Origin: a virus
Virus record (IMG/VR): IMGVR_UViG_3300049005_000030
Location: 1-64,000 of that record
Direction: 5' to 3' (one strand)
DNA: 64,000 nt
The notes under the pieces are model-generated. The model worked only from the letters and a program-made list of their open reading frames with translations. It was not told where the DNA came from and searched no databases. The translations under genes were made by a program, and so were the position numbers. This document shows positions 10,792 through 28,487 of this stretch, in pieces. Each line of letters begins with the position of its first letter. Within the stretch, counting starts at the first letter, position 1.

Positions 10792-12795
10792 TCACTCAGT
10801 GTTACCGTTGACCGCAGCGAGTCGCGGCCCGCACCACGCCCAGCGCCCGTGCTCACCCGTGCGCTTCACCTTCTTGTCCGCCTCCCAGACGGCCATCAGG
10901 TTGTAGAACCAGCTCGACTTGCGCCCGGCCGCCCGGTACAGCTCGACCGCCTTCACCCCCTGGCCGTCGGCTTCCATCAGCAGCCGCCGGACGATCTTCT
11001 CCGCGTCCTCATCGGAGCGGGAATCCCCCTCCGCCTCCGCGATGGCCTCCGCCCGGACCCGGTCGGACTCCTCCCGCTGCTCCGGGGTCATCGCTTCCCG
11101 CCGCCGCGCGATCACCTCCGCCAGGTCCACGTCCGGATCGTTCTCGCCCCACACCGTGACGTTCTCGCTCACGTCGCCCTCATCGCCTGCCACCTGGTCC
11201 TCCGCTCCGTTGGCGTTCCCGTTCCCGTTCCCGGTGGCGTTCCCGCTCGGTTCCCGCTCCGGCTCCGCCTGGTCGACGGGAACCCAGCGAACCCGCTCCG
11301 CCCACAGCGGACACACGGCGGAAAAACTCTCCTCCATTTGCGGCAACATTTTCGCCGTCTGCCCGCACCGTTCCTCGGCCACCGCGTCCCGCGTCGCATC
11401 GCTGATCCAGAAAATGCGGATCGGGGCTCGGTCTACCACCGCACCATCCTTCGCGTAGCACGTGCCCTGGCGGTTCGGGTCGATCAGATGGGCGCGCACC
11501 CCCGGCGTGCCACCAAAAACGTAGCTCTCGCCTTCGTCGTCCTCCATACGGAAACAGAACTTGTGCCGGATCTGCTGCCGAATCTGCGAAGAGCCAATCG
11601 CCTCCAACGTCGGGTATTGGGTGGCCAAAACGAATCGGACACCCAGACCGCCGCCCTTGTTGGCGATTTCCGCGAACCAGTGCACGATCAGGCCGTCGCC
11701 GGAACCCAGTAGCGTCTTGGCTTCATCGACGACGATTTGGGTGATCGGACCGTGCTTGCTGGTGTCCCACACCCGGTCACCGGTCGAGGCCATCAGCGCC
11801 GCGTTCTGGTCGAGCAGGCCGCCCGGCTCGGCGATCGCGCGCAGCACTTCCTTGGCCTCTGCGACCGTGGACACCACCAGCTCCATGCACTTGCGCCACG
11901 GGCCCAGCTCCACGCCGCCCTTGAAGTCGAAGCCGATCTGTTGCACGTCATCGGTGCAGGCGTCGCTGGCCACGATCAGGTTGATGAGCCCCGACTTGCC
12001 GCTGCGGGTGGCGCCGCCGATCAGCAGGTGGCGGACCCCGTCGCCCTTGACGTAGCGCTGGATGGTGCGCAGCTGGCCGTCGGCGCGCGGGCCCAGCACC
12101 AGCGGGTCGGTGGCCTTGCCCACGTGCGTGGGCAGCGGCCAGTTCTGGGCGGCCGCGTGCGGGTCGCGCTCGATCACCCGGAACCGGACGCTGCTGGTGG
12201 ACTTGCCGTCCTGCTCCATCTGCAACGTGCCCATGTCGGCGCCCAGCACGCTCTCCACCCGAGCGATGTTGGTCTTGCTCAGCACGTCGTCGACCTGATA
12301 GGTGCCCGGTGCCCAGGTGAATTTCCCGCTGTAGCCGGTCACGTCCATGGTCACCTCGACCGGGCGGGCGCGGTCGAAGTTGATCCGTTGCGCCACCGTG
12401 GGCCAGTCCTGCAACGTGGCCTCCATGCGCACCTGCTGACGCTTCACGTGGCTGGTCCACCACGGGATGCCGCCCACGAGGATGCCGGCGCCCAGGGACA
12501 ACCACGTCCACTGCGGCGACATCCACCCTTCGTAGGCGCACATCACCCACGAGGTGGACGCGCCCAGCACGCTGTAGGCGTACATCCGGCGCATGGGGTC
12601 GCCGATGCGGCTGCGGATCCAGGCGTAGCCAGCGAGCGCGCCCGCGCCGAGGCCGACCCCGCTCTGGACGAGGTCGGTCCCGGCCCAGTGCATCGTCCCG
12701 TCCAGCGCTGCGACACCAGCCCCCACATAGAAGGGGCCGAGCGCCAGGCGCTTGCGGCGCAGCACTTCCCAGAGGTTGATGTCGTCGTCACGCAT
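10792..12795 (-). CDS. traB: FtsK/SpoIIIE-family conjugative DNA translocase, TraB-like
   Basis: N-terminal TMs, Walker A GGATRSGKS, DFKGG, Walker B IVVDE, LATQ, C-terminal wHTH (VKAVELYRAAGRKSSWFY...GRW). Confidence 0.85.
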   Translation of the reverse strand: MRDDDINLWEVLRRKRLALGPFYVGAGVAALDGTMHWAGTDLVQSGVGLGAGALAGYAWIRSRIGDPMRRMYAYSVLGASTSWVMCAYEGWMSPQWTWLSLGAGILVGGIPWWTSHVKRQQVRMEATLQDWPTVAQRINFDRARPVEVTMDVTGYSGKFTWAPGTYQVDDVLSKTNIARVESVLGADMGTLQMEQDGKSTSSVRFRVIERDPHAAAQNWPLPTHVGKATDPLVLGPRADGQLRTIQRYVKGDGVRHLLIGGATRSGKSGLINLIVASDACTDDVQQIGFDFKGGVELGPWRKCMELVVSTVAEAKEVLRAIAEPGGLLDQNAALMASTGDRVWDTSKHGPITQIVVDEAKTLLGSGDGLIVHWFAEIANKGGGLGVRFVLATQYPTLEAIGSSQIRQQIRHKFCFRMEDDEGESYVFGGTPGVRAHLIDPNRQGTCYAKDGAVVDRAPIRIFWISDATRDAVAEERCGQTAKMLPQMEESFSAVCPLWAERVRWVPVDQAEPEREPSGNATGNGNGNANGAEDQVAGDEGDVSENVTVWGENDPDVDLAEVIARRREAMTPEQREESDRVRAEAIAEAEGDSRSDEDAEKIVRRLLMEADGQGVKAVELYRAAGRKSSWFYNLMAVWEADKKVKRTGEHGRWAWCGPRLAAVNGNTE
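11214..11256 (-). repeat. CGGGAACG repeats inside the traB linker
   Basis: CGTTCCCG at 11214, 11220, 11226, 11238. Confidence 0.85.
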
Positions 12796-12812
12796 GGTCG
12801 TTCGCGCCTTTC

Positions 12813-13802
12813 TCAGCTGGTCAGGGTCTGGTCGTCGACTACCGCGCCGGCCTTGCGGGCCTGGGCGGCCTTGATCTCGGCGGCCATGTTCTCCTTCACC
12901 GTCGCGATGAAGTTGGCGAAGTAGGCGCCGGTTTCGGTCAGCGAGTCGCTGGCCCGGGTCAGGTTCTGGATGTCGCCGGGGTCGAATCCGGCCTGGACCA
13001 GTCGCAGCTTGTAGGCGCGGACGTGTTCGGACGCCTGGGCCAGGGCCTTCTCCAGGCCGAGCGCGTCGGCCTCGATCTGGCTCAGCCTCAGTCGGCCGGT
13101 CCCGCTGGCCGCGTACTCGGCGAATCCCCGTGCGACGAGGTTGGCCGCCGTGCTGTCTCCTGCCACTGCCTTGGCTCCGATCTTGTCCATGTGCGCCCGG
13201 TTGGCGGCGACGATCTTTTCGGCCCGGCGGTCCTCCGGGGTCTTGGCGGTGCTGCGGTGCCGCCCGCTCGGCTTGCCCTTGACCGGCTTGACGATGACCT
13301 TGCCGTTGGTCTTCTTGGTGGTGCCCAGGTGGAGCGCGGGCTGCTCCGCCTTTTTCTTGTAGATCATCTTTTCGTTGGCGTGAGCCAGGATGAAGTGCTG
13401 ATTGAGCAGCTCGGCGGACTCGAACATGGTCGAGCAGCTAAAACAGGTGAAGCTGCGCCGGCCGAACCTGCGCTTGTGGATCTTGGTCGGGTCCGGGACG
13501 ATCTTGCCGCCCAGCGTCCGCTCCGGGTGGTCTTCGTCGTAGACGATCTCGTGCCCACGCCGGGCGGCTACCTCGCGATCCACCGCGTTGCGCGTCTTGC
13601 GATAGGTGCGCTTGACCTGCCCGGGGGCGGTGAACACCGCGTAGTGCGCTGTGGCCTTCGCGGTGCCCACCGCCACCCGCACCAGCAGGTGGCGGTTGCG
13701 GGCCGGCTTCTTGCGCAGCCAGCCCCGCATCCGACGGCCGACCTTCACGCCGGGCGCCTCTTCCAGCCCGTCGCCCTTGGTGGTTTTGACTACACGTCCC
13801 AT
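12813..13802 (-). CDS. basic protein with C2H2-type zinc finger, in the TraA position
   Basis: FTCFSCSTMFESAELLNQHFILAH; helical C-terminus; directly upstream of traB. Confidence 0.7.
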   Translation of the reverse strand: MGRVVKTTKGDGLEEAPGVKVGRRMRGWLRKKPARNRHLLVRVAVGTAKATAHYAVFTAPGQVKRTYRKTRNAVDREVAARRGHEIVYDEDHPERTLGGKIVPDPTKIHKRRFGRRSFTCFSCSTMFESAELLNQHFILAHANEKMIYKKKAEQPALHLGTTKKTNGKVIVKPVKGKPSGRHRSTAKTPEDRRAEKIVAANRAHMDKIGAKAVAGDSTAANLVARGFAEYAASGTGRLRLSQIEADALGLEKALAQASEHVRAYKLRLVQAGFDPGDIQNLTRASDSLTETGAYFANFIATVKENMAAEIKAAQARKAGAVVDDQTLTS

Positions 13803-13808
13803 GTCTCC

Positions 13809-14630
13809 TTACTCCTGCCCGGTCGCGTCGGCCTCTGCTGCCAGCGCCGCCTTGAAGTCGCGGACGATCTGCCGCCCGCGCCCGGTGTCCTTGGTGGCGC
13901 CGAAGTAGGGCACGGCGACCAGTCGGTGCAGATCCGCACCGGTCACGTCCGCGCTGACGTGGCGCAGGTAGGCGGCCATGGCGTCACCGATGGTCGCGTC
14001 GGCCGGCATCCAGTCGGGGCGTCCGTCGGCGATCGGCGGCTTGGGCTCGGCGGCCGGCTTCGGCTTGGCGGTCGGCGCGGTCAGCACGACCGGGCGGGCG
14101 GCGACCCGGGTCTGCTCGCGGTCGGCGCGCTCGCGCAGGCGACGCACGAACCGGAACAGCAGCTCGACCAACGCGGCCATAGCCAGGGGCGGCCAGCCGG
14201 CGATGATCCACGCGGCCTTCTGGTCGATCCAGTCGTGGCCGATGTTGGCGAACACGGTCATACCCATGCCGCCCAGCGCGATCAGGTAGGCCAGCGGATC
14301 GGTCTTCTTGGTGCGGCTGTCCGCGTAGATGATCATGGACGCGGCCAGGATCGCGCCGTCCACGCTGATCGGGAACAGCGCCGCACGCCAGTCCGGCTCG
14401 TGGTTCTTGGTGGCCCAGTCCTGCATGTGCGAGTAGGAAATGGCCGCCGCGATGCCGACCACGGTCAACGTGGCGAGCAGGGCGACGCCGATCACCAGCC
14501 GCAGCTCCCAGCGACGCACATGGCCGCCGGCCGGTGACGTCGGACGCCTGAGCCGGAACCCGCGAAGCTTCGACAGCACGCGGCGGGTTGCCCCAGGCGC
14601 GTCGTGAGCACTACGACGCGCGAACTTCAT
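13809..14630 (-). CDS. DUF2637 / Spd-like membrane protein
   Basis: ISYSHM, LFPISVDG, ANIGH, IAGWPPLA, four TMs, C-terminal HTH-like segment; GAAAGGAG RBS. Confidence 0.8.
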   Translation of the reverse strand: MKFARRSAHDAPGATRRVLSKLRGFRLRRPTSPAGGHVRRWELRLVIGVALLATLTVVGIAAAISYSHMQDWATKNHEPDWRAALFPISVDGAILAASMIIYADSRTKKTDPLAYLIALGGMGMTVFANIGHDWIDQKAAWIIAGWPPLAMAALVELLFRFVRRLRERADREQTRVAARPVVLTAPTAKPKPAAEPKPPIADGRPDWMPADATIGDAMAAYLRHVSADVTGADLHRLVAVPYFGATKDTGRGRQIVRDFKAALAAEADATGQE

Positions 14631-14929
14631 GATCCGGTCGTCTCCTTTCGGCGGGCCGATCGCCTGCGCCATGTGCTGGCCGGCACCTGTGTGCAGTTGG
14701 CCAGGACATTCCACGACGTCCCGTTGTCTCTGTTGATCTTCAGTACCGCGTCGCGCACCCCGGTCAGCGTGCTGACCATCCGGTCCAGCGTCCGCAGGTC
14801 GCCCAGCGGATCGGAACCGAGCGCGACGGCGGAACCGAGGGCATCGACCCGGTCAGCGACAGCGCGCACTTGGGCGCTGAAGTCGAGGGGTTCGGTGTCC
14901 ACGTAGTCGCTCCGTTCTGGGTTGCGCAT
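14627..14929 (-). CDS. small HTH regulator heading the tra operon
   Basis: RDNGTSWNVLANCTQVPASTWRRR; ATGA overlap with next gene. Confidence 0.6.
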   Translation of the reverse strand: MRNPERSDYVDTEPLDFSAQVRAVADRVDALGSAVALGSDPLGDLRTLDRMVSTLTGVRDAVLKINRDNGTSWNVLANCTQVPASTWRRRSARRKETTGS

Positions 14930-15096: not shown

Positions 15097-16719
15097 GTGG
15101 CGGTGACGTTCGCGCCGAACCTGCGCCGGAAGGTGGTGGCCACCACCCCCGCTCGGGAAACCAAAGGTCTGGCCGACCGGGTCAAGACGTTTTTCCGTCA
15201 GTACGTCATCCCCGGCCAGCCCTACTTCGTCCCGTGGAACACCGACCGCGCCGTCCGCGAGGGCTTCGAGACCAACCCGTGGATCTACCGCGCCGTGCAC
15301 GTGATCGCGTCCAAGTCGCTGGACCTGCCGATCGTGCTGCGCCAGAACGACGGCGACAAGGGCGATCCGCTGGCGCCGGAGCTGGACCCGACCCGGCTGC
15401 TGTACCTGCTCAACGTGGAGGCCAACCCCTGGGAGCGGGCCAAGATCTTCCGCTACCGCCTGATCGCCCAGTTCCTGCTGTCCAGCAGGGGCGTGTTCAT
15501 CGAGGTGGTGCGCACCCGCGCCGGCCGCATCGGGCTGCTGAGCCTGCTGGACCCGGACAAGGTCGAGATCATCCCGACCAAGGAAATCCTGCCCGACGGC
15601 ACCGAGAAGATCGACCCTATCGGCACGTTCCGGATCACCCTGCAAGGCGGGGAACGCACGTTCGACTACCTACCCCGCTTCGACCCCAAGGGCAGTTACG
15701 ACAGCCAGGCCAGCAGCGTGTTGTGGGTGCGCTCACCGCACCCCACCCTGATGTTCCAGGGCATGACGCCTACCCAGGCCGCCGCCATGAGCGCCGACAT
15801 GGACCGCGCCGCCCGGCTCTACAACCGCCGTTTCATGGACTCCGACGGCCGGCCGGGCACGGTGATCGCCGTCAAGGGTACCGCCACCCGCGACACTCTG
15901 GACGTGGTCGAGAGCCGGATAGCCGGCAAGGCCCGGATCGACGGCCCTGGGGGTGTCGTCGCCATCCAGGCCGATGGGCTCAGCATTGCCGACACCTCCG
16001 GCAACCCTCGGGACACCCAGTGGGCCGAGACGATGGACCGGATGCGCAAAGAGGTCAGTATGACCTTCGGCGTCCCAGAGTCGATCTTGGGCGACGCGTC
16101 CGGACGCACCTTCGACAACGCCGACGCCGAAAAAGAGAACTTCTGGGAGGACACCGAGTCCCCCCTGCTGGCCATCCTGGACGACCAGCTGGACGTGCTC
16201 ACCGGCGGCTATGACGACTCCCTGTTCCTGCGCCACGACAAGTCCGGCGTGTGGGTGCTCGGCCGGCACCGGCGCATGGAGCTGGACCGCGCCTCGGCCG
16301 AGGTCGACACCGGCAAGCGCACCATCAACGAGTACCGCGCGCTGGCCGGCCTGGACGAGTACGAGAGCCCGCTGGCCCGCGTGCTGCTCATCCCCGGCGG
16401 CAAGATCATCGGCGCACTCAACGCCGAGGACGAGGCGGCCGCCGCCAAGGCCCCGATCCTGGGCAACCGGCTGCCTGCGGGCAACGTCGAAGCGCAGCAG
16501 GCCGCAGCCTTGAGCGGCCAGGCCGGCGCGGCCATCGGCTCGCTGGCCGGGGTGAACGCGGCCAACAACATCAACAACGCCAACAGCCTGCGCGCCCTGC
16601 CGCCCGGCGACCGCCAACCCACGGCGCTGGCCGGCAAGGACGGCGAGCCCCCGGACTTGGAGGGTAAGCAGGGCGGCGCGCGAGACCGAGGCGGGCGCAC
16701 CGCCACTGTCTGGCGATGA
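15097..16719 (+). CDS. portal protein (HK97-like)
   Basis: NPWIYRAVHVIA, YNRRFMDSDGRPG, VSMTFGVPESILGDASGRTFDNA, TINEYR. Confidence 0.9.
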   Translation: MAVTFAPNLRRKVVATTPARETKGLADRVKTFFRQYVIPGQPYFVPWNTDRAVREGFETNPWIYRAVHVIASKSLDLPIVLRQNDGDKGDPLAPELDPTRLLYLLNVEANPWERAKIFRYRLIAQFLLSSRGVFIEVVRTRAGRIGLLSLLDPDKVEIIPTKEILPDGTEKIDPIGTFRITLQGGERTFDYLPRFDPKGSYDSQASSVLWVRSPHPTLMFQGMTPTQAAAMSADMDRAARLYNRRFMDSDGRPGTVIAVKGTATRDTLDVVESRIAGKARIDGPGGVVAIQADGLSIADTSGNPRDTQWAETMDRMRKEVSMTFGVPESILGDASGRTFDNADAEKENFWEDTESPLLAILDDQLDVLTGGYDDSLFLRHDKSGVWVLGRHRRMELDRASAEVDTGKRTINEYRALAGLDEYESPLARVLLIPGGKIIGALNAEDEAAAAKAPILGNRLPAGNVEAQQAAALSGQAGAAIGSLAGVNAANNINNANSLRALPPGDRQPTALAGKDGEPPDLEGKQGGARDRGGRTATVWR

Positions 16720-16798
16720 CTTCCCGCCGATCACCGGCAATACCCTGGCCGTCGGCGAGGCCACCCCGGAACCGCCGCCCGGACCCGACCGTGACCAG

Positions 16799-18010
16799 AT
16801 GGTGGCCGGCAACGAGAACCGCGCCGACCACAACGAAGTCCTGATCACCGCCATCATCACCGCCTACCTCGCGCGAACCCTCGGCGTCACCATCAGCCGG
16901 CTACGCGGCCCCGCCGCGCGCAAGGGCACCCGGTTCTGGGAAGGCGACGGGGCAGGCACGCGAACGCTCGACCCCGCCTACGTGCTGCCCGACAAGCTGA
17001 TACGCGAGCTGGAAAGCCAGATCACGCCGGTGTTCCAGCGCATCGCCGAGAGCGCCGCCGCCGAGACCGCCCAGCGCATCGACGGCGAGGGTGACGACCT
17101 GGTGCCCTACAGCGCGCAGGACATCGGCGACGCCGTGGCCGCCGCCGTCGGCCGCGTCATGGTCACCGCCGAGCGCTACGCCGACGAGGTGCGCCAGGCC
17201 ATCGCGCAGGCCGAGCACGACCACACCGCCGACCTGGACGCGGTCACCCGACAGGTGGAGGCGGCCAACCGGCGCGGCGGCGCGTGGCTGTCGACATCGG
17301 CGCGCACCCTCGGCTTCGCCCTGTCGAACGAGGCCGCCCGCCGTGAAGCCATCCGGCGCGGAGTCACCCACCACCAGTGGGTGGCCAAGGATGACGATCA
17401 CGTCCGCGCCTCGCATGTCGTCGCCGACGGCCAAGTCCGGCTGATCGACGACCGGTTCGAGGTCGGCAAGGCCCGGCTGCTCTATCCCGGCGACCCGTCC
17501 GGCCTGCCCTCCACCTGGGACGAGGTCGCGAACTGCCGGTGCGGGCAGGCATTCGGAATGCCCGCCATGGCCACCCAGCGCATGTTCGCCCTGATGCGCG
17601 GCCAACGGCACAACCCCGACGCGCCCGGCAACACCTCCACCGCATTGGCCATTGCCGTCGCGGCCGCCGCCGATCAGCCCGGTGGCGCGACCATCACCGC
17701 CAGCCCGCACGGCTTCCCGGACCTGCCGCCGGTGGCCACCCTGCTGTCCGCGCCCACCGACCTGGTGGGCTACCGGGTGCTGGACAAGCCGCCGCAGGTC
17801 ACCCCCGGCCAGTGGCTCACCCTGCCCGGACAGCTCGTGCTGGGCATGGCCCCGCCAGCCTCGGCCGCCGCGATCCTGCTCACCGTGCTGATCCCGGCCG
17901 GCACCACCATCGGCGTGGCCGGCGGCGCGATGCTGCTGCCTGGTGACGTCCCGCTGGAAGTGCTGGGCGCCGGCATCGACGGCATCCGCGCTCAGGCTGT
18001 GACGCCCTGA
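16799..18010 (+). CDS. MuF-like minor head protein with degenerate ART-like C-terminus
   Basis: QWVAKDDDHVRASH...DGQ...LLYPGDP...ANCRC; start uncertain, frame open from 16556. Confidence 0.85.
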   Translation: MVAGNENRADHNEVLITAIITAYLARTLGVTISRLRGPAARKGTRFWEGDGAGTRTLDPAYVLPDKLIRELESQITPVFQRIAESAAAETAQRIDGEGDDLVPYSAQDIGDAVAAAVGRVMVTAERYADEVRQAIAQAEHDHTADLDAVTRQVEAANRRGGAWLSTSARTLGFALSNEAARREAIRRGVTHHQWVAKDDDHVRASHVVADGQVRLIDDRFEVGKARLLYPGDPSGLPSTWDEVANCRCGQAFGMPAMATQRMFALMRGQRHNPDAPGNTSTALAIAVAAAADQPGGATITASPHGFPDLPPVATLLSAPTDLVGYRVLDKPPQVTPGQWLTLPGQLVLGMAPPASAAAILLTVLIPAGTTIGVAGGAMLLPGDVPLEVLGAGIDGIRAQAVTP

Positions 18011-18156
18011 GTCAGCACGATCACCAGCGCGACGATCGCCAGTGCGGCGCCCACGATCAGCGCTATCTGGTAGCCCGGACGCGGCCCGACCGCCACCGCG
18101 ATCAGGCCCAGCACGACGGCGACGGACAGAAACAGCAGCGCGAGGTGGTCGGTCAT
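17992..18156 (-). CDS. 54-aa two-TM protein antisense to the head operon
   Basis: MTDHLALLFLSVAVVLGLIAVAVGPRPGYQIALIVGAALAIVALVIVLTQGVTA. Confidence 0.55.
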   Translation of the reverse strand: MTDHLALLFLSVAVVLGLIAVAVGPRPGYQIALIVGAALAIVALVIVLTQGVTA

Positions 18157-18357
18157 GGGACTGGAGTACCCAGAAACGACGAAACCCCCGCCGTAGACGG
18201 GGGCTTGTCGGTTCCGCACGTACCCGTGACCTTCCGAGGTGAAAGCCAGGCTGTGCGCAAAACAGCATAGCAACCGCCCACTTCGCGTGTCGACCACGTG
18301 GCCGCCGATACGGCTGCGACGATGGCGCGAGCGCGCATAGATCGTGAGGAGACAGCG

Positions 18358-19860
18358 ATGGCAGACGGGGCTCGAACCTCGGGAATGGTCGCGCTGGTGC
18401 CCAGTGCCGACGATGTGGACAAGCTGGCCATAGGCGGCGGCGAGGACCCCGGGGAGCTGCACCTGACGCTGGCCTACCTCGGCGACGATGTGTCTCAGCT
18501 TTCACCGCAGGAGCGCAACGGGCTGGCCGGCGCCATCCTCGACCACGCGCAGAACCTCGCGCCGATCACCGCGCGCGTCATGGGGCACGCCTCGTTCAAC
18601 CCCGACGGCGGCGCCGAGGGCGACATGGACCCCTGCGCCGTCTACCTGGTCGGCGACTCCCCGACCATCCCAGGCTTGCATGACGACCTGGCCACGCGCA
18701 CCAGCGCCGAGCAGCACACTCCCTTCATCCCGCACGTCACCGCCGGCTACGGCAAGAGCGCCGGGGACCTGTCCTACTCCGGCCCGGTCACCTTCGATCG
18801 GATGCGGCTGGCCCTGGGCGACCAGGCGTACGACTTCCCGCTGGGCGGGGTCGACCCGGACGCCGAAGACGACGACGCCGAAGAGGACCTGGCCGACGGC
18901 GGGGCCGACGAGGCCGCCGAGGGCGAGGATCCCGAGGATGACGACCGTATTTTCGAGGATGACGGGGTGGATCCCGAGGATGACGACTATGGCCTGAAGG
19001 GCCTGGAGTCGTTTCGCCAGTACGAGACCAAGCGGGTATTCAGCTCGGATCGCCGCAAGAAGCTGGCCCTGTCCGGGCACGCCATGTCCGACGGGTCGTA
19101 CCCGATCGAGACGGTGGGCGATCTGTCCAACGCCATCCGGTCCTACGGCGAGGCCCCGGCGGCCAAGCGCCCCGCCGTGCGCGCCCACATCGTCAAGAGC
19201 GCCAAGAAGCTGGGCGCGCGAAAGATGATCCCGACGAAGTGGCCGGAGCACCCGGCCAACAAGGGCAAGAAGCAGCTGACGGTGGCCGAGATCGAGCAGA
19301 AGGTGGCCAGTCCGGATCCGCGCGCGGCCAAGCTGCGCAAGTACTGGGCGCACAACCCGAAGGCGCGGGCCAAGTGGCAGCCCGGGGTCCCGGGCGACTT
19401 CAACCGGCTGCGAACGCTGCTGGCCAAGTACGTGCATGACCCGCACATCCTGGCCGGGCTGACGGCGAACATCCACAAGATGGCGACCGGCGCATGGCCC
19501 GGCCACGAGAAGTCGGTGCGGATCAGTGTGGCGCAGTTCAAGGCCGCGCTGGCTATGGCCGACCCGGACGCCGAGCAGCCTTCGGCGGATGTGTTCGCCG
19601 ACCTTGGGAGCGTCGACGAGGACGCCGGGGAGCGCGGCGACGACGCGCCCGACGAGGACCCGGACGACGAGGACGCCTACGAGCAGGCGCTGGCTGACGA
19701 GGTGGACTGGAACATCACCCCGGATGGCGTGCTGGTCGAGGGTGGCGACACCGGCGCGGTGTCCAACCTCGGTGAGGACGAGGACGAAGAGGACGACCCG
19801 GTGGGCCCGACGCCGCGTGATGACGGGTCGGATCTGTTCAGCGTCGCCGGTTTGGGTTGA
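18358..19860 (+). CDS. multidomain head-associated protein: 2H phosphoesterase (Acb1/LigT-like), acidic linker, DUF6582-like domain, further head domain
   Basis: LHLTLAYLG and PHVTAGY HxT pair; GHAMSDGSYPI...AIRSYG; LRKYWAH...PGDFNR...HKMATGAWPG; GAGGAG RBS. Confidence 0.8.
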   Translation: MADGARTSGMVALVPSADDVDKLAIGGGEDPGELHLTLAYLGDDVSQLSPQERNGLAGAILDHAQNLAPITARVMGHASFNPDGGAEGDMDPCAVYLVGDSPTIPGLHDDLATRTSAEQHTPFIPHVTAGYGKSAGDLSYSGPVTFDRMRLALGDQAYDFPLGGVDPDAEDDDAEEDLADGGADEAAEGEDPEDDDRIFEDDGVDPEDDDYGLKGLESFRQYETKRVFSSDRRKKLALSGHAMSDGSYPIETVGDLSNAIRSYGEAPAAKRPAVRAHIVKSAKKLGARKMIPTKWPEHPANKGKKQLTVAEIEQKVASPDPRAAKLRKYWAHNPKARAKWQPGVPGDFNRLRTLLAKYVHDPHILAGLTANIHKMATGAWPGHEKSVRISVAQFKAALAMADPDAEQPSADVFADLGSVDEDAGERGDDAPDEDPDDEDAYEQALADEVDWNITPDGVLVEGGDTGAVSNLGEDEDEEDDPVGPTPRDDGSDLFSVAGLG

Positions 19861-19886
19861 TTACCCGCCGCCAGGGCGGCTAGTAT
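19857..19886 (+). promoter_or_regulatory. degenerate promoter/operator copy
   Basis: TTGATT-acccgccgccagggcggc-TAGTAT, then GTTCCGT. Confidence 0.6.
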
Positions 19887-19922
19887 TTCGCTGTTCCGTT
19901 CGACCGCAGGAAGGCGCAGGCC

Positions 19923-22900
19923 GTGACCGCACCCCCGATCCCCGCCCTGGAATACAAGACCCTCAGTGCCACCCTGGCCGCGCCGACCGCGCTCAACCCC
20001 AGTGACACCGGGGACGCCGTGGTGGTCGGCTACGACGACGCCAAGGGCACCGTCGACGCCGTAGTGGCCGTCACCGGCACTCGCGACGAGGTGGGCGACA
20101 TCGTCACCCCCGGCGCGTTCAAGTCGAGCATCGCTAGCCGCCACCCCAAGATGTGCCTGGGCCACGACTGGAACCGACCCATCGGCTGGCCCATCGACTA
20201 CAAGGAACTGCTGCCCGGAGACCCCGGCCTGCCGGCCGAGACCGCCGACGGCAAGCCGTGGCCTGCCGAGGCCGGCGGCCTGTGGACGCGCAACCAGTAC
20301 ATGCTCGACACCCAGGACGGCCGCGACGCCTACGCGCACGCGAAGTTCTACGGCAACAAGACGGCCTACTCCATCGGCTACGTCGTCACCAAGTCCCGCA
20401 AGGCCCTGGTCGACGGCCTGCCCACCCGGATCATCGACGAACTCGACCTGTACGAGTACGGCCCGGTGCTGCACGGAGCGCACCCGCTGGCCACCCAGCA
20501 GTCGGTGAAGACCGCCGCGCCGCAGGGTATCGAGAACAAGGTGCGGCTGGTTCACGACGCCCACTACTGGGGTCTGCCGATGGGCACCCCGATCCACCCC
20601 GGCATGAAGCCGCGCGGCGCGAAGGCGCAGAAGCTGGAACGGGCCGGGCACGCCGTGTCCGAGACCGAGGGCGCGGTGGACATCCCCAATGACAAGCTGC
20701 GGATCAAGCCGACCGCGCGGGGCAAGTCGAAGTTCAAGCCGGACGGCGCGCTACAGGCCCAGCTCTACGGCGAGATCATGTCGAAGATCGACGAGGGCGA
20801 GGCTCCCGAGGACTTCTCGGTCGACGACCCGAACGGCCTGAACAAGAAGGAAGGCGAGTACAACCCGCTGGACCTGATGGTGGCCAACGGCGTCACCCCG
20901 GCCGAGATGGAGAACACCCTCCGCAACGCCAACTGGGACGACAGCCGGGTGGGCGACTCGGCCGACAACCAGGACCAGATCAACACTTTCGTTGACGACG
21001 TGGTGGGCGTCTACCGCGAGAAGTACAACGCCGCCCTGGTCCAGCAGAACGGCAACAAGGACACCGCCACCGTCGCCGACCCCGCCGACACCGGCACAGA
21101 CTCGGCCGGTGTCGAAGGCCCCACCCCGGACGTGCCTGACACCACCGCGCCCGGAGACGCCAATGCCGGCGACACCACCGCGCCGGCCGCGCCCGAAGCG
21201 ACCGCGCCGGACCACCCGCAGGCAGCGCCGGGGTCGACTCCCCCGGCCGCGCCGGCAGCCGCGCCGGGGCAGCCGGACGCGCCCGGCATGTCCACCACGA
21301 AGCTGACCACGCTGCCCAAGCACGAGGCGGCGGCCGCCGCCGGCTCCATGTCCGACCAGGAACTGGCCGCGCACGACACCGAGATGGCCTCGCGTGCCAC
21401 CCAGCTCGGCCGCGACGGCCAGGTCAGCCCCAACCATCAGACCGTCAAGGACGAGGTCGCCCGGCGTGCGGGCAACCCGCCGCAGGCCCCGGCGGCCGGG
21501 CCCGCCGCCCCGGCCGCGAACGCGCCGGCTCCGACGACGGCCAAGCCGCCGCGCAAGCTGGCCGCCAAGCCGGCCGCCGCGATCGGCGCGGCCAAGCCCG
21601 GCAGCGTCACCCAGCACCCGACCGGCCCCGACGGCAAGCCCGACACCACCGCCGAGCCCGTGGCCAAGCAGGGCCTGGTCACCGACAAGGTGCCGCCGAA
21701 GATGGCCGACGGCCTGGCCAAGGCTGGCCTGGCCGAGCACACCGCCGAGCCCGGCAAGATGGTGCTGACCCCGCAGGGCGAGCAGCACCACCATGCCATC
21801 AACGGCACCACGCCGCCCGCGCCGAACGGCGCGCCAGGGGAACAGGCCCCTACCGCGCCGACGATGTCCACGAACAAACTGGCCTCGCTGAACAAGCAGG
21901 ACGTGGCCACAGCGGTGGGCGCGATGTCCGACCACGAGCTGGCCGGACACGACCAGGAGTTGGCCAGCCGCGCCTCCCAGCTCGGCAAGCCAGGTCAGGT
22001 CACCCCCAACCACCAAGCGGTCAAGGACGAGATCGCCCAGCGTCCCGCACCGGCCCCCGGCGGGATCCCCCCGACCGCCGCCGTGGGAGCGCCGGGGATG
22101 GCTCCGGCCGTCCCCGGCGCATCGGCCGTCCCTGGCGAGCCTGCGCACGCCAATGCCGTGGCCGCCGAGACGTTGCGCACCCTGCCGCGCGACGCCTCCG
22201 GCCGCGTCGACCTGGTCAACGCGCCCACCTCGCTGGTTCAGACCATGCGACAGGCCGGCATCGACGACAGCGGCGGCGCGGAACAAGATGAACAGTCGTT
22301 TACCCGCGCGCTGGACGCGCTGGACCAGCAGTACGGCCAGGACCCGGCCATGGCGCACGCGCTGACCACCGCACGCGGCTTCGTCACTGGCGAGCAGCCC
22401 GGCGCCCGCGTCATCCAGAAGCAGGCCGCCGCCGACGCCAAGCAGCTCCAGACCGATGAGACCCCGGTGGGCGACCGGGCCGACGCCGCGCGCGTGCTGG
22501 CCTCCGCCCTGAACAAGTCCGGCATGGCTTACATGTCCGACCCGTCCGGCAACGTCCGCGACAGCCGCCCCATCCCGAACGCCCTGTCGAAGTACGCCCA
22601 GGCCCTGGTCAGCTATCACGGCGCGCTGCCGCCCGCGAAGGTCGCCAAGCCCTCCGGCGCGCCCGACTACACCCCGACCGGCGACGCCAGCCGCCTCGGC
22701 GAGCTGACCGACAGCCAGTTGGCCGCCGAGGTTGGCCACGCGCAGGGCAAGCTGGACGAGATCACCAAGGCCGACCCCCGCCGCGAGTCCGGCCAGCACG
22801 CTGACGCCAAGCTGAAGCTGGACGCCTTCCAGGGTGAGCACAGCCGACGGCAGCAGGCCGGGGAGACGCGCCCGGACGAGACCGCTCCCGACGCAAGCGG

Positions 22901-25900
22901 AGGCACTCCTCCGAATCCGGAGGCCGTTTCGGCGACGTCCACACAGGACGGACAACCGGCCGCCGTTCCCAACGCTGCCAACGAAACCGGCATCCCCGGC
23001 ACACCCGCCGCACCGCCGGCCACCCCGCACTCCGACACTGTTCCGACCCCACAGGAAGCCGCCCAGATCACCGCCGACGAACAGGGCGACGTCCAGGACA
23101 TCGGCGACTCCGCTCAAGGCGTGGTCGAGTCCGACGACGGCGAGTTCGAGGTGGAACCCGACATCGCCGAACGCCAGGACCGCATCGCCACCCTGCTCGG
23201 CCAGTCCGATAGCGGCAACCTCGACCTGGGCAGCCAGAACGACGACCAGTTGCGCTCAACCCGAGGCGACATCGTCGGCGAGATCCAGTTGCAGCGGTAC
23301 CTGGACAACCGCAACCGCCAGCGCGCCAACCCGCAGCCCACCACACCGGAACCGCCGCACGCCCCGGAGGGCGCCGCACCGGCCCAGGGAACCGTCGACG
23401 GCCACACCCCCGGCACCCAGGCGACGCCCGGCGCGCCGGTGCCGGCCGTTCCGGCCGAATCGGGGCCGCCGCCGCAGCGCCCTGGCGTCGCGGGCGCGGC
23501 CGAGGACTTCGCCGACGCCCTGGAATCCGGCGACAGCGAGAAGATCGACGCCGCGCGGGCCCGGCTGGCGTCCAGCCTGCGCCGGTCCAAGACAGACGCC
23601 GCCTCGGTCGGCGCGATGCGCGAGCTGGCCTCCGGCGAAGGCGACCCGAGTGCGGAGGACCTGCGAGCCGGCGCCCAGACGGTGCGCACGGAGGTGCGCG
23701 AGCGGCGCAACACCCAGGCTCGCAGCCGCCGCACCGCGCGCCGCTTCGAGCGCGACCACCTGCGCAACCTGCTGCACCAGGTCGAAGGCGAGATGGACCG
23801 CCGCAACATGCGGTACGACCCGGTGGCGCCGGAGTCCGGCGACGGCGCGGCCGCCTCCGGGACGTGGCGGACCGAGCTGCGCAAGCATTCCTGGTCCAAT
23901 CTCGGCTTCCAGGAAGACCATCTGAGCGGGGCCAACTTCACCGCCATGGTCTCCACCCCGGTCGACGCCAAAAACAACCCCACCGCTGGCGCGAACTACA
24001 CCTGGAAGACCATCGACAACGATGGCAACACCATCACCCAGGGCAATGGCACCGTCGACAACGCCACCGGCGCCCGCGACGCCATCGTCACCGCGCTCAA
24101 GGCGCAGCAGGCCCTGGGCAACCTGCCCGCCGACGCCGGGGTGCCCGAACCCAGCACTCCCCAGACCAGCTCGGCGCGCACCCATGCCGACGTGGCCGCC
24201 GCCGTCAGCCAGATGCAGGAGCGGCTGAGCACGGCCGAACGCGCCGTCAACCCCATCACGGGGGCCCGCGATCCGCTGGGCAAGCGCCCGACGCTGACCC
24301 CGCCCGCGCGACCCGCGTTCACCAGCCCCGACCAGGTGCGCCAACACCTGGCGACCCTGGCCGCCGACGGGTCGCAGACCCGCCAGCTCATCGCCCGGCG
24401 AGCCGTGAACGTGCAGTGGGACAACGTGCAGCTCACCCCCGGCGGCGGCCTCATGGTCGTCACCGTGGCCGGCGAGAAGGACCCGCAGCTGTGGCACACC
24501 GGCAGTGGCCGCTCGGCCATGTCGCTGATCTACCGGGGTTCCGGCGGCGCCTCCCGCCTGTCCGCGCCGGATCTGCTGCGCGCCGGCACGCTCATGGAGT
24601 CGCTGCCCGACGACAACGGGCACACCGTCGACTTCTCCAGGTCCGACGACAACAGCGTGATGACCAGCACGAGCGACTACACCGTGGGCGACCGCAGCGG
24701 CGTCGACGCGTTCGCTCGCAACGTCATGAGCGCGCTGGTCGCCGAGAAGATCAAGAACGGCCAGTGGGGCAGCCCCGTGGTCAGGGGCATGTCCTCCGAC
24801 GTCGCTCCGTTCTCGCCGGGCAGCAACCACACCCGCGCCGGCTACGTGCAACAGAACCGCGACGCCCTGACCACAATGCTGTCCAACTCCCTGACCGGCC
24901 GCCGCGTCAAGCCCACCGGCGAGGACGCGGACACCCTCAACGTCGCCACCGCCGCCCAGACCCTGACCAACCTGGGCGCGCCCGACGCGGCCGCCGTGCT
25001 GCTGCGCCGCCGCGCCGCCGAGGTGCGCGCCACCTTCGGCGGTGAGGCCGACGCGCACGGTGCGAGCACCCTGGACAACCTGGCCGCCGGCCACCTGTCC
25101 ACCTACTCACCTGTCCTGTCCCCCGGCGAGCGGCTGCTCAGCATCACCCAGGGGGAACGCGTCACCGTGGCCGACCCCGACGGCAACGCCCGTAGCTACC
25201 GGGTGCTGTCGCCGCCGCGCACCGGCACGTTCCCCGCCTATCGCACCGCCACCGTCATGGACGAGTCGACCGGCGAGACCGGCGTGCTCACCGTCGCCAA
25301 CAATGCCGCCGAGCAGCCGCAGATGACCATCAGTCCCAGCGCGGACCTGCCGGCCATGGTGCGCATCGACCTGCACTCGCCCACCTTTACCGTGACCGGC
25401 GCGGACGAACCGGCCCCCGCCAACGCCGACGAGGTGCGCGCGAACGCCATGGCCGAGGTGGACGCCATCCCGCATGAGGTGCTGGACGCGGCCGCCGCCG
25501 CCCTGCCCTCCACCAACACCGAGACCGCCGCGCGTCGGGCTCTGCCGGCCGACCAGCGGCCGCCCCGGCGCACCAGCCCGCGCGCGGTCCCCAAGACCGC
25601 GCCGGAGGCCAAGCCGGGCACCCCGGTCGCTGGCGAGCAGCACCTGGCGGCCACCCAGGCCAGCACGCTCAGCTCGTGGGTGGGCGCCGAGCACACGCTG
25701 TCCGACTCGGCCCCTGCCGGTGGATTTGACTCGCTGGCCTCATGGCGGGAGTGGGCCAGGGAGGCCGCCAGCGACCCGAACACGCCGCCGAAGGTGCAGC
25801 AGGGGCTGACCAATGCGTTGCTCAACGACGACTACCTGGAAGCGAACGGGGCACGTCTGTCACCGGGTGGTCACATGATCGTGTTCGGAAAGAACGGACA

Positions 25901-27005
25901 CGTGGTCTACGCCCGCGCTGGCATGACCGTGTTCCCGGCCGGCGTCGGCGCGGCATCCGCCATCGGCGTGGACAAGATCCCGCCCGACACCGGTATGGCC
26001 ATCGCCGACGGGATCGAGCGCAGCTCGTGGAACGGGCAGACCATCCGCTGGGGCGATGGGTACACAGCCGCCACCTCCGACATCAAGAAGGTTATGGAAA
26101 ACCTGCCGCGCGCCAGCGACAAGGTGGGGTACCGGGATCCGATGCTGTCCCCGGCCAAGCTGGCGTTCGCCGGCCAGGTGGCCGACGCCAAGACGCCCCG
26201 CGTGGGCGACATCGAGGCGCTGGAAGCACTGGCCAGCGGATCGGCCTCGCCGAACATGGCGAGCCCGGACGCCATCGGCGGCCTGCATCTACAGGACCGG
26301 GAGAACGCCTACCGGCAGATGGCCGGTGTGCGCGCCCGGGTGTTCTACTCCACCCCGGTCAAGCGGAACGAGCCCGCCGACACCAAGGCAGGCCAGAACC
26401 TGGCGAAGCGGGTGGCCACGGAAATGCGGATCGCCCAGTCGCTCTCGCAGGTCGCTCCGCTGGACGCCTCGCGCCGGCTGAACCGGGTGGCCGACGAGAT
26501 CGACGGCCAGAAGATCACTGAGGCCAACGGCGGTTCCGAGCACAACCCGGCCGCCGAGATGCGGGCGGCGGCCCGCGCGATCGCCGATGCCTACGACGAG
26601 AACAAGGTGACGCCGTTCGGGAAGCTTCGCCGCGCCGGAAATGTCGGTCTGGTCATGCCACGCTCGGCTCCGAAGGTGACGGCCGTTGGCGCGGGTACCT
26701 ACAGCCGTGACGACCGGGCCAAGGCGCTGGGCGAGATGCTGGCCCAGGGGGTCCAGTTCACGCGCGGCGAGGACGGGGCGACCATCGCCCGGTTCGGCGA
26801 CCAGGCTGTGACGACCTCGAACACGCCGGGGCAGTTCACCACCGCGTACGCGGGCGGCAACGGCAAGCCGGTGCAGGGCGGCATCGGGCTCCAGCCGGAC
26901 GGCAGTATCACGATGCGCTGGCAGGACCGGCTCACCCGCACCACGGTTCAGGCCACGATTCCGGCGGGCGGCTGGGATTTCCAGGACTCCACAGCCGAGG
27001 AATAA
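19923..27005 (+). CDS. HK97-type prohead protease fused to about 2150 aa of unknown cargo
   Basis: DEVGDIVTPGAF, LGHDWNRPIG (His), YSIGY (Ser), ELDLYEYGPV; lies before the capsid gene. Confidence 0.85.
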   Translation: MTAPPIPALEYKTLSATLAAPTALNPSDTGDAVVVGYDDAKGTVDAVVAVTGTRDEVGDIVTPGAFKSSIASRHPKMCLGHDWNRPIGWPIDYKELLPGDPGLPAETADGKPWPAEAGGLWTRNQYMLDTQDGRDAYAHAKFYGNKTAYSIGYVVTKSRKALVDGLPTRIIDELDLYEYGPVLHGAHPLATQQSVKTAAPQGIENKVRLVHDAHYWGLPMGTPIHPGMKPRGAKAQKLERAGHAVSETEGAVDIPNDKLRIKPTARGKSKFKPDGALQAQLYGEIMSKIDEGEAPEDFSVDDPNGLNKKEGEYNPLDLMVANGVTPAEMENTLRNANWDDSRVGDSADNQDQINTFVDDVVGVYREKYNAALVQQNGNKDTATVADPADTGTDSAGVEGPTPDVPDTTAPGDANAGDTTAPAAPEATAPDHPQAAPGSTPPAAPAAAPGQPDAPGMSTTKLTTLPKHEAAAAAGSMSDQELAAHDTEMASRATQLGRDGQVSPNHQTVKDEVARRAGNPPQAPAAGPAAPAANAPAPTTAKPPRKLAAKPAAAIGAAKPGSVTQHPTGPDGKPDTTAEPVAKQGLVTDKVPPKMADGLAKAGLAEHTAEPGKMVLTPQGEQHHHAINGTTPPAPNGAPGEQAPTAPTMSTNKLASLNKQDVATAVGAMSDHELAGHDQELASRASQLGKPGQVTPNHQAVKDEIAQRPAPAPGGIPPTAAVGAPGMAPAVPGASAVPGEPAHANAVAAETLRTLPRDASGRVDLVNAPTSLVQTMRQAGIDDSGGAEQDEQSFTRALDALDQQYGQDPAMAHALTTARGFVTGEQPGARVIQKQAAADAKQLQTDETPVGDRADAARVLASALNKSGMAYMSDPSGNVRDSRPIPNALSKYAQALVSYHGALPPAKVAKPSGAPDYTPTGDASRLGELTDSQLAAEVGHAQGKLDEITKADPRRESGQHADAKLKLDAFQGEHSRRQQAGETRPDETAPDASGGTPPNPEAVSATSTQDGQPAAVPNAANETGIPGTPAAPPATPHSDTVPTPQEAAQITADEQGDVQDIGDSAQGVVESDDGEFEVEPDIAERQDRIATLLGQSDSGNLDLGSQNDDQLRSTRGDIVGEIQLQRYLDNRNRQRANPQPTTPEPPHAPEGAAPAQGTVDGHTPGTQATPGAPVPAVPAESGPPPQRPGVAGAAEDFADALESGDSEKIDAARARLASSLRRSKTDAASVGAMRELASGEGDPSAEDLRAGAQTVRTEVRERRNTQARSRRTARRFERDHLRNLLHQVEGEMDRRNMRYDPVAPESGDGAAASGTWRTELRKHSWSNLGFQEDHLSGANFTAMVSTPVDAKNNPTAGANYTWKTIDNDGNTITQGNGTVDNATGARDAIVTALKAQQALGNLPADAGVPEPSTPQTSSARTHADVAAAVSQMQERLSTAERAVNPITGARDPLGKRPTLTPPARPAFTSPDQVRQHLATLAADGSQTRQLIARRAVNVQWDNVQLTPGGGLMVVTVAGEKDPQLWHTGSGRSAMSLIYRGSGGASRLSAPDLLRAGTLMESLPDDNGHTVDFSRSDDNSVMTSTSDYTVGDRSGVDAFARNVMSALVAEKIKNGQWGSPVVRGMSSDVAPFSPGSNHTRAGYVQQNRDALTTMLSNSLTGRRVKPTGEDADTLNVATAAQTLTNLGAPDAAAVLLRRRAAEVRATFGGEADAHGASTLDNLAAGHLSTYSPVLSPGERLLSITQGERVTVADPDGNARSYRVLSPPRTGTFPAYRTATVMDESTGETGVLTVANNAAEQPQMTISPSADLPAMVRIDLHSPTFTVTGADEPAPANADEVRANAMAEVDAIPHEVLDAAAAALPSTNTETAARRALPADQRPPRRTSPRAVPKTAPEAKPGTPVAGEQHLAATQASTLSSWVGAEHTLSDSAPAGGFDSLASWREWAREAASDPNTPPKVQQGLTNALLNDDYLEANGARLSPGGHMIVFGKNGHVVYARAGMTVFPAGVGAASAIGVDKIPPDTGMAIADGIERSSWNGQTIRWGDGYTAATSDIKKVMENLPRASDKVGYRDPMLSPAKLAFAGQVADAKTPRVGDIEALEALASGSASPNMASPDAIGGLHLQDRENAYRQMAGVRARVFYSTPVKRNEPADTKAGQNLAKRVATEMRIAQSLSQVAPLDASRRLNRVADEIDGQKITEANGGSEHNPAAEMRAAARAIADAYDENKVTPFGKLRRAGNVGLVMPRSAPKVTAVGAGTYSRDDRAKALGEMLAQGVQFTRGEDGATIARFGDQAVTTSNTPGQFTTAYAGGNGKPVQGGIGLQPDGSITMRWQDRLTRTTVQATIPAGGWDFQDSTAEE

Positions 27006-27161
27006 AAGCCGATAATAGCGCGGCTAACAATTCAATAATTGGGCGACACGCCGGGCGGCTACGAAAGCGCCCGGCGTTTCCCGTCTAATCTGCCCCTTAG
27101 CGCGCTTGGTACTGACCGGCGCGGAGTAGCCGTATCCCTCCGTGTTGAGAGGACACACACC

Positions 27162-28487
27162 GTGTCGACCATTGCCAAGGAACGCGACTCGCTGCGCAAG
27201 GTGCTCACCGAGAAGAAGGCACTACTGGACCAGATCGAGACCAAGGGACTGAAGGACGAGACCGGCAACGGCCACTACGTCATCAGCGCCGAGGCCGCTG
27301 GCGAGTTCCGCAAGGTCATCGGCGAGTGCAAGGACATCAAGGCCCGGCTGGGCGAGCTCGGCGAGTACGCCGAGATCGACGCCTACCTGAACAACCCGGG
27401 CGCCGAGTCCAAGGCCGCCCAGATCCCGGTGCAGCGCGGCATGATGGAGCGCAAGAGCATCGGCCAGCGGTTCACCGAGTCCGCCGAGTTCAAGGACCGC
27501 AGCTCCACCGGCGTCATGCACACCGCCTTCGAGCTCGGCGAGGACCTGACCTCCCTGGAACGCAAGGACATCTACACCGCCGCCGGTGGCACCCTGACCC
27601 GCTTCGGCTTCGGCACGGTCGAGCAGGAGCCGGTTGTCCAGCGGCCCTACCGCACCGACCGGGTGCGCGACCTGTTCCCGCAGGCCAACACCAACGCCAA
27701 CCTGATCGAGTACATGCGCGTCCTGGGCTACCTGGACGGCAACAACAACGCCGCGCCGGTCGCCGAACGCGACGCCGGTAGCCCGCAGAACTTCGGCCTC
27801 AAGCCCCAGACCAAGCTGAAGTTCCAGCCGGCCCAGTCCCCGATCCGGACCCTGGCCCACTGGGAAGTCGCGCACCGCAACACCCTCGATGACGAACCGA
27901 TGTTGCGTTCGATCATCGACAACGAACTGCTCTACGGCCTGCGGCTGGTCGAGGATGACCAGTTCCTCAACGGCGACGGCACCGGCGAGAACCTGCTGGG
28001 CATCCTGCGCACCCCCGGCGTGCAGGACTACCCCGGTTTCCCGCTGCCCAGCCCGTCGCCGGTGCAGGCCCTGGACACCCAGATCGACGCGGTGCGCCGC
28101 GCGGCCACCCGCGTCATGCTCGCCTACTACTCCCCGACCGGCGCCGTGGTCCACCCGTACGACTGGGAGACCATGGAGACCACCAAGACGACCCAGGGCC
28201 AGTACGTGATCGCCCTGAACGTCGCGGTGGGCGCGGAGAAGCGGATCTGGCAGATGCCGGTCGTGGCCTCCCCCGCCATGCAGCAGGGCGTGGGCCTGGT
28301 CGGCGCGTTCGGCCTCGGCGCGAAGATCTACGACCGCCAGCAGTCCAACATCCGCGTGGCCGAGCAGCACGAGGACCTGTTCATCCGCAACGCGGTGCTG
28401 ATCCTGGCCGAGCAGCGGGTGGGCCTGACCGTGTCCCGCCCGGAGTCGTTCGTCAAGATCGACCTGGTGGCGGGCGTCCACAGCTGA
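27162..28487 (+). CDS. major capsid protein (HK97 fold, with delta domain)
   Basis: VRDLFP, IRTLAHW, EDDQFLNGDGTGENLLGI, FIRNAVLILAEQR, RPESFV; GAGAGGA RBS before GTG 27162. Confidence 0.95.
   Translation: MSTIAKERDSLRKVLTEKKALLDQIETKGLKDETGNGHYVISAEAAGEFRKVIGECKDIKARLGELGEYAEIDAYLNNPGAESKAAQIPVQRGMMERKSIGQRFTESAEFKDRSSTGVMHTAFELGEDLTSLERKDIYTAAGGTLTRFGFGTVEQEPVVQRPYRTDRVRDLFPQANTNANLIEYMRVLGYLDGNNNAAPVAERDAGSPQNFGLKPQTKLKFQPAQSPIRTLAHWEVAHRNTLDDEPMLRSIIDNELLYGLRLVEDDQFLNGDGTGENLLGILRTPGVQDYPGFPLPSPSPVQALDTQIDAVRRAATRVMLAYYSPTGAVVHPYDWETMETTKTTQGQYVIALNVAVGAEKRIWQMPVVASPAMQQGVGLVGAFGLGAKIYDRQQSNIRVAEQHEDLFIRNAVLILAEQRVGLTVSRPESFVKIDLVAGVHS

Follow-up and report, generated by a model that had tools for sequence, protein, structure and literature searches.

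A hydrophobic-Glu-x-Lys motif at conserved head-protein junctions as the probable recognition site of an S78 prohead protease in an actinobacterial myovirus

Do the short tetrapeptides that recur at domain boundaries of several phage head proteins mark the places where a single prohead protease cuts them? We examined this question in the late operon of an actinobacterial phage with a contractile tail (myovirus-type), known here from its genome only. The analysed window comprises positions 1-64000 (64,000 nucleotides, G+C ~70%) of the 101,153-bp IMG/VR record IMGVR_UViG_3300049005_000030, which has direct terminal repeats and a CheckV completeness of 100%. Its plus strand carries, in this order, the genes of a portal, a MuF-like protein, a 2H phosphoesterase, a giant protein headed by an S78 protease and an HK97-fold capsid protein, followed downstream by neck, sheath, tube, tape-measure and baseplate genes. 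The tetrapeptide motif is conserved and enriched at the junctions of these head proteins and avoided in their folded and cargo regions, and the sequence of the protease is intact. On these grounds we consider it probable that the S78 prohead protease recognises [L/I/M/V/F/Y]-E-x-K and would cut after the Lys at conserved head junctions. The genes concerned are the following:

15097..16719, plus strand: portal protein, 540 aa (PF04860, 136 bits; phrog_2662 and phrog_12; an identical 540-aa protein is on record)
16799..18010, plus strand: MuF-like head morphogenesis protein, 403 aa (PF04233 below the cut-off, 22.5 vs 29.6 bits; phrog_859, phrog_2468 and phrog_2662)
18358..19860, plus strand: 2H phosphoesterase protein, 500 aa (PF13563, 30.6 bits, cut-off 27; phrog_2659 and phrog_6439)
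19923..27005, plus strand: giant protein, 2,360 aa, composed of the S78 prohead protease and a partner of ~2,150 residues (PF04586, 32.8 bits, cut-off 21)
27162..28487, plus strand: HK97-fold major capsid protein, 441 aa, with a delta domain of ~135 residues (PF05065, 127 bits; identical to P0001)

The original prediction had pointed to ten E-x-K tetrapeptides in these proteins. All ten coordinates are exact and lie in the frame of real genes, and nine of the peptides do contain E-x-K; the tenth reads G-H-E-K, and one of the nine, RETK, has no hydrophobic residue before the Glu. Eight of the ten are conserved, at the same junctions and amid linkers of variable sequence, in homologues that share 40-90% identity (the arrow marks the predicted cut):

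15154..15165, plus strand: RETK↓G (K23), N-terminal site of the portal
16657..16668, plus strand: LEGK↓Q (K524), 16 residues from the portal end
19021..19032, plus strand: YETK↓R, 2H protein, directly before module B
19291..19302, plus strand: IEQK↓V, 2H protein, directly before module C
19947..19958, plus strand: LEYK↓T, N-terminal propeptide of the protease
20529..20540, plus strand: IENK↓V, junction between the protease and its partner
27444..27455, plus strand: MERK↓S (K98), inside the capsid delta domain
27555..27566, plus strand: LERK↓D (K135), predicted maturation cut of the capsid

The two peptides that are not conserved were discarded as sites:

19501..19512, plus strand: GHEK, 2H protein, neither E-x-K nor conserved in position among relatives
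27234..27245, plus strand: IETK, capsid, with E-x-K in just 6/115 homologues and probably a chance occurrence

A recurrence of this kind could in principle reflect chance and the K/E-rich composition of coiled-coil and linker regions. Plain E-x-K is weakly enriched in the head module (15 observed vs 8.4 expected, P = 0.025), a surplus owed mostly to the delta domain, which is rich in K and E; in the giant protein the count of 4 equals the expectation. These figures, together with the two unconserved peptides, are consistent with chance. The MuF-like protein contains no E-x-K at all. When a hydrophobic residue is required at P4 ([LIMVFYW]-E-x-K, hereafter h-E-x-K), the head module has 8 copies vs 2.0 expected (binomial P 6e-4, for a post hoc pattern), the tail genes have 1 vs 1.3, and the other ~17,000 residues of the genome have 4 vs 7.8. 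The comparison between head and tail that had been proposed as a check thus came out in favour of the motif, which is not equally frequent in non-head proteins. Conservation in homologues, the other check that had been proposed, also supports the motif and is stronger evidence than these counts within one genome: alignments of hundreds of diverged homologues show the eight sites at matching positions.

The distribution of the motif within the giant family argues in the same direction. We collected 60 homologues of the giant protein (1,500-3,700 aa) and counted motif positions in 58 of them. Copies of h-E-x-K are concentrated in the first 60 residues (77 observed vs 2.9 expected) and in residues 186-260, just after the protease domain (59 vs 4.0), whereas the interiors, ~1,500-2,000 residues each, have 7 vs 45.4 expected (ratio 0.15). 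The signal persists in 24 non-redundant interiors sharing less than 10% of their 5-mers (5 vs 20.1, Poisson P = 6.6e-5). Control patterns in the same interiors are not depleted to this extent (h-D-x-K 0.92, h-E-x-R 0.73, h-K-x-E 1.63), and h-E-x-K is the most depleted of the 245 hydrophobic-a-x-b patterns with at least 20 expected copies. Similar trends are detectable in the portal core (5 observed vs 21.4 expected) and in the mature capsid domain (2 vs 12.2); among the capsid homologues, 246 of 248 copies of h-E-x-K fall in the delta domain. A motif favoured at junctions and avoided elsewhere is the pattern expected from a protease recognition site. Conservation and depletion together largely refute chance, which we regard as a very improbable explanation.

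How does the predicted specificity compare with that of HK97? The capsid protein has the HK97 fold with an N-terminal delta domain: it shares 34% identity with HK97 gp5 over residues 168-438 and has ~135 extra N-terminal residues. In 120 capsid homologues of 55-91% identity, LERK↓D retains both the Lys and the P1' Asp in 120/120 and the P3 Glu in 112/120. K135 lies 32 residues before the conserved VRDL, and K103 of HK97 lies 30 residues before IRDL; mature HK97 chains in the PDB have 282 residues and therefore start at Ser104. In position, LERK↓D corresponds to the place where HK97 is cut after Lys103. The D3 scaffold domain, 113 residues long (PMC12749128), also ends within ~2 aligned residues of this site. 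The inner site, MERK↓S, aligns with E-K-K-S of HK97 and keeps its Lys in 113/120 homologues and its P1' Ser in 108.

Several observations weigh against the proposed role of the motif. The rule of a hydrophobic P4 was set after the data had been seen, and the homologues are related to each other, so that counts among them are not independent. At MERK↓S the P3 residue is Gln as frequently as Glu (55 and 52 of 120 capsid homologues). HK97 itself is cut at FNK↓S, without Glu. The closest cultured relatives by capsid in GenBank are Gordonia phage ChisanaKitsune and Brevibacterium phage Cantare (44-52% identity), and the Cantare capsid has YGQK↓D, again without Glu. More distant capsids from a large IMG/VR clade (L021-L082, 46-49% identity) have Y-N-V-K↓D or Y-G-Q-K↓D. 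In addition, an N-terminal E-x-K occurs across the S78 family, for instance as TEIK at the equivalent place of HK97 gp4, and the copy at the N-terminus of the protease may be structural, or an ancestral feature with another role. Finally, the portal sites are embedded in longer conserved blocks, and at the C-terminal one P1 is Glu instead of Lys in 27 of 116 homologues.

Since HK97 FNK↓S and the distant Y-N-V-K↓D and Y-G-Q-K↓D capsids have no Glu, this residue is not generally needed. As judged from the alignments, Lys at P1 is general and Glu at P3 is a preference specific to this clade. The sites of the L021-L082 capsids resemble F-N-K↓S of HK97. We also looked for co-variation between protease and site, and BLAST returned no protease homologue within 10 kb upstream of the Y-N-V-K↓D capsids.

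The portal sites bear on a different explanation, in which the motif is conserved for a role other than cleavage and stays uncut, either as a docking or assembly motif (for the capsid interior, scaffold or portal) or as a structural cap at module starts. At RETK↓G, 112 homologues retain P3 Glu in 103, P1 Lys in 112 and P2' Leu in 96, with a variable P4 (V, L or R), and the site is part of the longer block ETKGLxxRVRSF, as a docking motif might be. LERKDIYTAAGG is likewise a fully conserved stretch. LEGK↓Q keeps P3 Glu in 115/116 homologues with P1 Lys in 82, Glu in 27 and Arg in 7, and the pattern h-E-G-K-Q-G-x-A-R forms a conserved island amid a variable tail; the frequent replacement of its Lys by Glu again suits docking. 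So does the E-x-K near the N-terminus of HK97 gp4, for which the literature examined documents no such cut. However, a docking role leaves unexplained the strong avoidance of the motif in giant interiors, mature capsid and portal core, as well as the coincidence of one site with the HK97 maturation cut, and the duplicated copies at some junctions resemble the multiple cleavage motifs in SPN3US propeptides (PMC10052503). We therefore regard conservation without cleavage as unlikely and favour recognition by the protease. Some portal homologues (P0157, P0182, P0218 and P0230) contain LAGLIDADG-type inteins.

The candidate enzyme for this recognition forms the N-terminal part of the giant protein:

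20031..20516, plus strand: S78 protease domain, residues about 37-198 of the giant protein (PF04586, residues 118-193; phrog_80, head maturation protease, E = 3.7e-25)

The catalytic residues H81 (in GHDW) and S150 (in YSIGY) are invariant in 34 aligned protease homologues, and so is E178. Sequence-based searches found no solved structure for the protease. In an AlphaFold2 model of giant residues 1-266 (predicted local distance difference test, pLDDT, 82.9), two regions are predicted with confidence, the protease fold (43-196) and a small domain (206-255). Foldseek ranks T4 gp21 (probability 0.97-0.99) and herpesvirus proteases highest, which hints at an assemblin-like fold, although the statistics are weak (E 1.4e-2, template modelling score 0.3-0.5). 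LEYK↓T lies in the low-confidence segment 1-36, and the residues that precede IENK↓V, 199-203, have a pLDDT below 50. Because low-confidence segments hold or adjoin both sites, LEYK and IENK sit, according to the model, in accessible linkers. The first site is present in about 56 of the 60 giant homologues, often in 2-3 copies, and is kept in 11/11 relatives, with Glu in 9 and Asp or Gln in ChisanaKitsune and Cantare. The second is present in 8/9 giant-type relatives and in about 53/60 homologues, where it is often doubled. The small domain after the protease (residues 206-255; 20538-20687) is highly conserved, with the pattern V-R-x-V-R-D-x-x-Y-W-G-x-P-x-G-T-P-I... and a pLDDT >90, and belongs to no Pfam family. 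An LEPK at residue ~70 of some homologues, just before the catalytic His, was treated as structural; the protein in the window has HPK there.

Specificity could also differ in detail: the motif might be a real processing signal that is cut after the Glu or nearby, or by another host or phage protease. In favour of this, the related proteases of T4 and phiKZ/SPN3US cut after Glu (PMC10052503). By contrast, HK97, which represents the closest characterised enzyme family, cuts after Lys. Moreover, the conservation of the modules begins right after the Lys, the Lys is the invariant residue of the motif while Glu can be replaced by Gln or Asp, and the S78 domain is the only protease identified among the scanned head-module proteins. 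A different cut or a different enzyme is for these reasons distinctly unlikely, and cleavage after Lys by the S78 protease is the reading we retain.

We then asked whether the giant protein is a polyprotein cut at many places, as the original prediction had implied. The copy in the window has no internal conserved sites and is therefore not a multiply cut polyprotein; its partner would be released as one piece of ~2,150 residues. DENK at residue 2225 was rejected as a site, as it aligns with non-motif residues in the homologues. Those homologues that have an optional C-terminal domain carry h-E-x-[KR] directly before it. Some homologues contain Zeta_toxin/AAA_33 kinase domains and others ArdC-N, MPTase or UvrD (P0259-P0300); the Pfam search of the giant protein in the window returned the S78 domain only, with no domain in the interior and no recognisable effector domain. 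A segment of ~60 residues is duplicated within the protein (around residues 456-515 and 648-707).

The 2H protein presents the motif at the boundaries of two modules. It belongs to the 2H superfamily, with PF13563 above the cut-off and the two motifs HLT and HVT in the translation, and comprises the 2H domain, an acidic linker, module B, module C and an acidic tail. Neither module B (residues 237-331 of the open reading frame, ORF) nor module C matches a Pfam family at E <= 1, and the DUF6582 label given to the domain after YETK has no support from Pfam. YETK↓R, directly before module B, is conserved in relatives: every IMG/VR relative with an in-frame module B has the motif before it, as [hydrophobic]-E-x-K in L009, L010, L011 and L017 and as SETK in L008, and DETK precedes the module B found at the C-terminus of the ChisanaKitsune protease. 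IEQK↓V has an h-E-x-K counterpart before module C in all IMG/VR relatives. A broader survey covered 150 sequences, each representing a 50%-identity cluster; there, E-x-K stands before module B in 24/51 matches and before module C in 53/78. Among the module C matches that begin with [ST]-x-x-P, 49/53 have E-x-K, and the remaining four carry Gln or Asp in place of Glu.

In more distant relatives (P0402, P0407, P0414, P0443, P0449 and others) an aromatic residue replaces E-x-K before module B (E-F↓R or A-Y↓R), which may point to a protease with a different specificity. Inteins interrupt module C at a conserved G-L/C in L008 and L010, and the junction motifs are retained at the outer ends. An acidic tract followed by L-F (or L-W) near the C-terminus recurs in proteins of the 2H family (strict pattern in 21/50, more if looser); in the window it is found at 19750-19857, and likewise at the C-terminus of the ChisanaKitsune protease (L001, 15780-15862). 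This tract with L-F may be an encapsidation tail. As the ChisanaKitsune protease likewise ends in module B and an acidic tail, the comparison suggests that both are encapsidation tags rather than cargo.

Taken together, these comparisons confirm the observation behind the original prediction and partly support its interpretation. We infer that the proteins are cut, after the Lys and within the prohead, and that packaging and ejection extend to both the 2H enzyme and the giant partner. In the mechanism we propose, the protease, forming the front of the giant protein, would be carried with it into the prohead; once the prohead has assembled, it would cleave all eight conserved sites behind their Lys. 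By the cut at LEYK↓T it would shed its own N-terminal propeptide, and by that at IENK↓V it would be freed from the partner of ~2,150 residues, which would stay whole. Cuts at YETK↓R and IEQK↓V would leave the 2H phosphoesterase joined to its acidic linker but free of modules B and C and of the acidic tail. The portal would lose about 23 N-terminal and 16 C-terminal residues through RETK↓G and LEGK↓Q, and the capsid delta domain would be dismantled through MERK↓S and LERK↓D, the latter yielding the mature N-arm.

A wider picture, whose chances we judge to be evenly balanced, is that of a large, mostly uncultured clade of ~100-kb actinobacterial myoviruses in which an S78 protease heads a polyvalent protein of 1,500-3,700 residues, a hydrophobic-E-x-K code sets every head junction, cargo interiors are purged of the motif, and the modules at the junctions are removable encapsidation tags. 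If this holds, the proteins of the mature virion could be read from the sequences of hundreds of metagenomic phages: the N-terminus of the mature capsid, the portal after trimming, and the 2H enzyme, kinases and ArdC-type effectors set free by the cuts. Our literature searches found no published cleavage consensus for S78 proteases, and a study of actinophage capsids states that the cut site of the delta domain cannot be predicted (10.1101/2022.09.09.507160). A sequence rule valid for the clade would supply mature capsid N-termini to structural studies. It would also indicate which enzymes are released within the head, namely the 2H phosphoesterase and, in relatives, Zeta-type kinases and ArdC-type domains. 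2H phosphoesterases of this kind have been proposed to degrade host immune nucleotides. The avoidance of the motif within cargo may serve as a general computational signature, usable to find the protease codes of other phage groups. The prediction can be tested in the two cultured relatives, ChisanaKitsune and Cantare.

Some further features of the genome complete its description. Two gene starts were corrected, that of the capsid to 27162 (441 aa) and that of the 2H gene to 18358 (500 aa, start set by P0301). The large terminase, TerL, was found with PHROGs at genome positions 89912-91411, ~25 kb from the portal region across the genome ends. The family search of the phage's own genome was insensitive, as it missed PF04586 although the domain is present, and its negative result for PF03354 is uninformative. 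The minus-strand region 10792-14714, back to back with the portal gene, encodes an FtsK/SpoIIIE-like ATPase (PF01580) and a DUF2637 protein. The plus-strand ORF 13023-14537 (504 codons, a terminase-like size) was rejected as an antisense high-G+C artefact with a nonsense translation and no family match; it is not a gene, and the real genes there lie on the minus strand. Public assemblies hold hundreds of relatives that are closer than the cultured ones and uncultured, on contigs of ~100 kb. When the protease domain alone was searched against IMG/VR, no related loci were found, and these were gathered by capsid alignment instead.

Among known systems, HK97 has a protease of the same family, S78 (MEROPS/Pfam), encoded directly before an HK97-fold capsid with a delta domain, and shares the Lys at P1. 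It is also similar in the distance of the capsid cut from the RDL motif, in the E-K-K-S aligned to MERK↓S and in the TEIK near the N-terminus of gp4. It differs in lacking a P3 Glu at its cut site, FNK↓S, and in that gp4 is a free protein of 225 residues, not the head of a 2,360-residue fusion. To our knowledge, no packaged enzyme cargo is known for HK97.

ChisanaKitsune and Cantare resemble the present phage in gene content, with portal(-MuF), 2H protein (annotated 'RNA ligase'), large uncharacterised proteins, protease, capsid and contractile tail, and in the presence of the motif at the protease N-terminus, in the capsid and at the portal-MuF junction. The portal-MuF junction of ChisanaKitsune contains two copies of LETK, the capsid of this phage reads IERK↓D, and its packaged-type ADP-ribosyltransferase has LESK after an N-terminal peptide of 16 residues. 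In both phages, however, the protease is a separate protein of 430-500 residues, and in ChisanaKitsune it is the protease C-terminus that carries module B of the 2H protein.

The giant family also fits the concept of polyvalent proteins (Iyer et al. 2017, PMC5512222), since Zeta-toxin kinase, ArdC-N, MPTase and UvrD domains are found among its homologues; like polyvalent proteins, its members are very large multidomain proteins among late virion genes. A 2H domain adjoining MuF and portal, as in this window, is described in the same work (PMC5512222). That description differs in placing an assemblin-like peptidase only at the C-terminus, whereas here the protease is N-terminal, and in giving no cleavage motif; the giant protein of the window itself also lacks a recognisable effector domain. 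A protease at the N-terminus of a polyvalent protein would extend this class.

Comparable in principle are T4, with its protease gp21, and phiKZ/SPN3US, with gp245, where one prohead protease uses a short motif common to the capsid, the protease and internal proteins, with several copies in propeptides, and where cargo enzymes travel with the DNA (PMC10052503). Here, too, one short motif, h-E-x-K, is common to the capsid, the portal, the protease fusion and the 2H protein. The motifs of those phages end in Glu (L/I-x-E and A-x-E) and their proteases are of an S77-like sub-family, whereas here the motif ends in Lys, the protease is S78 and the processing is predicted. The present phage is thus not a member of that group by motif or protease sub-family; by analogy, its head processing would work like that of T4 and phiKZ/SPN3US.

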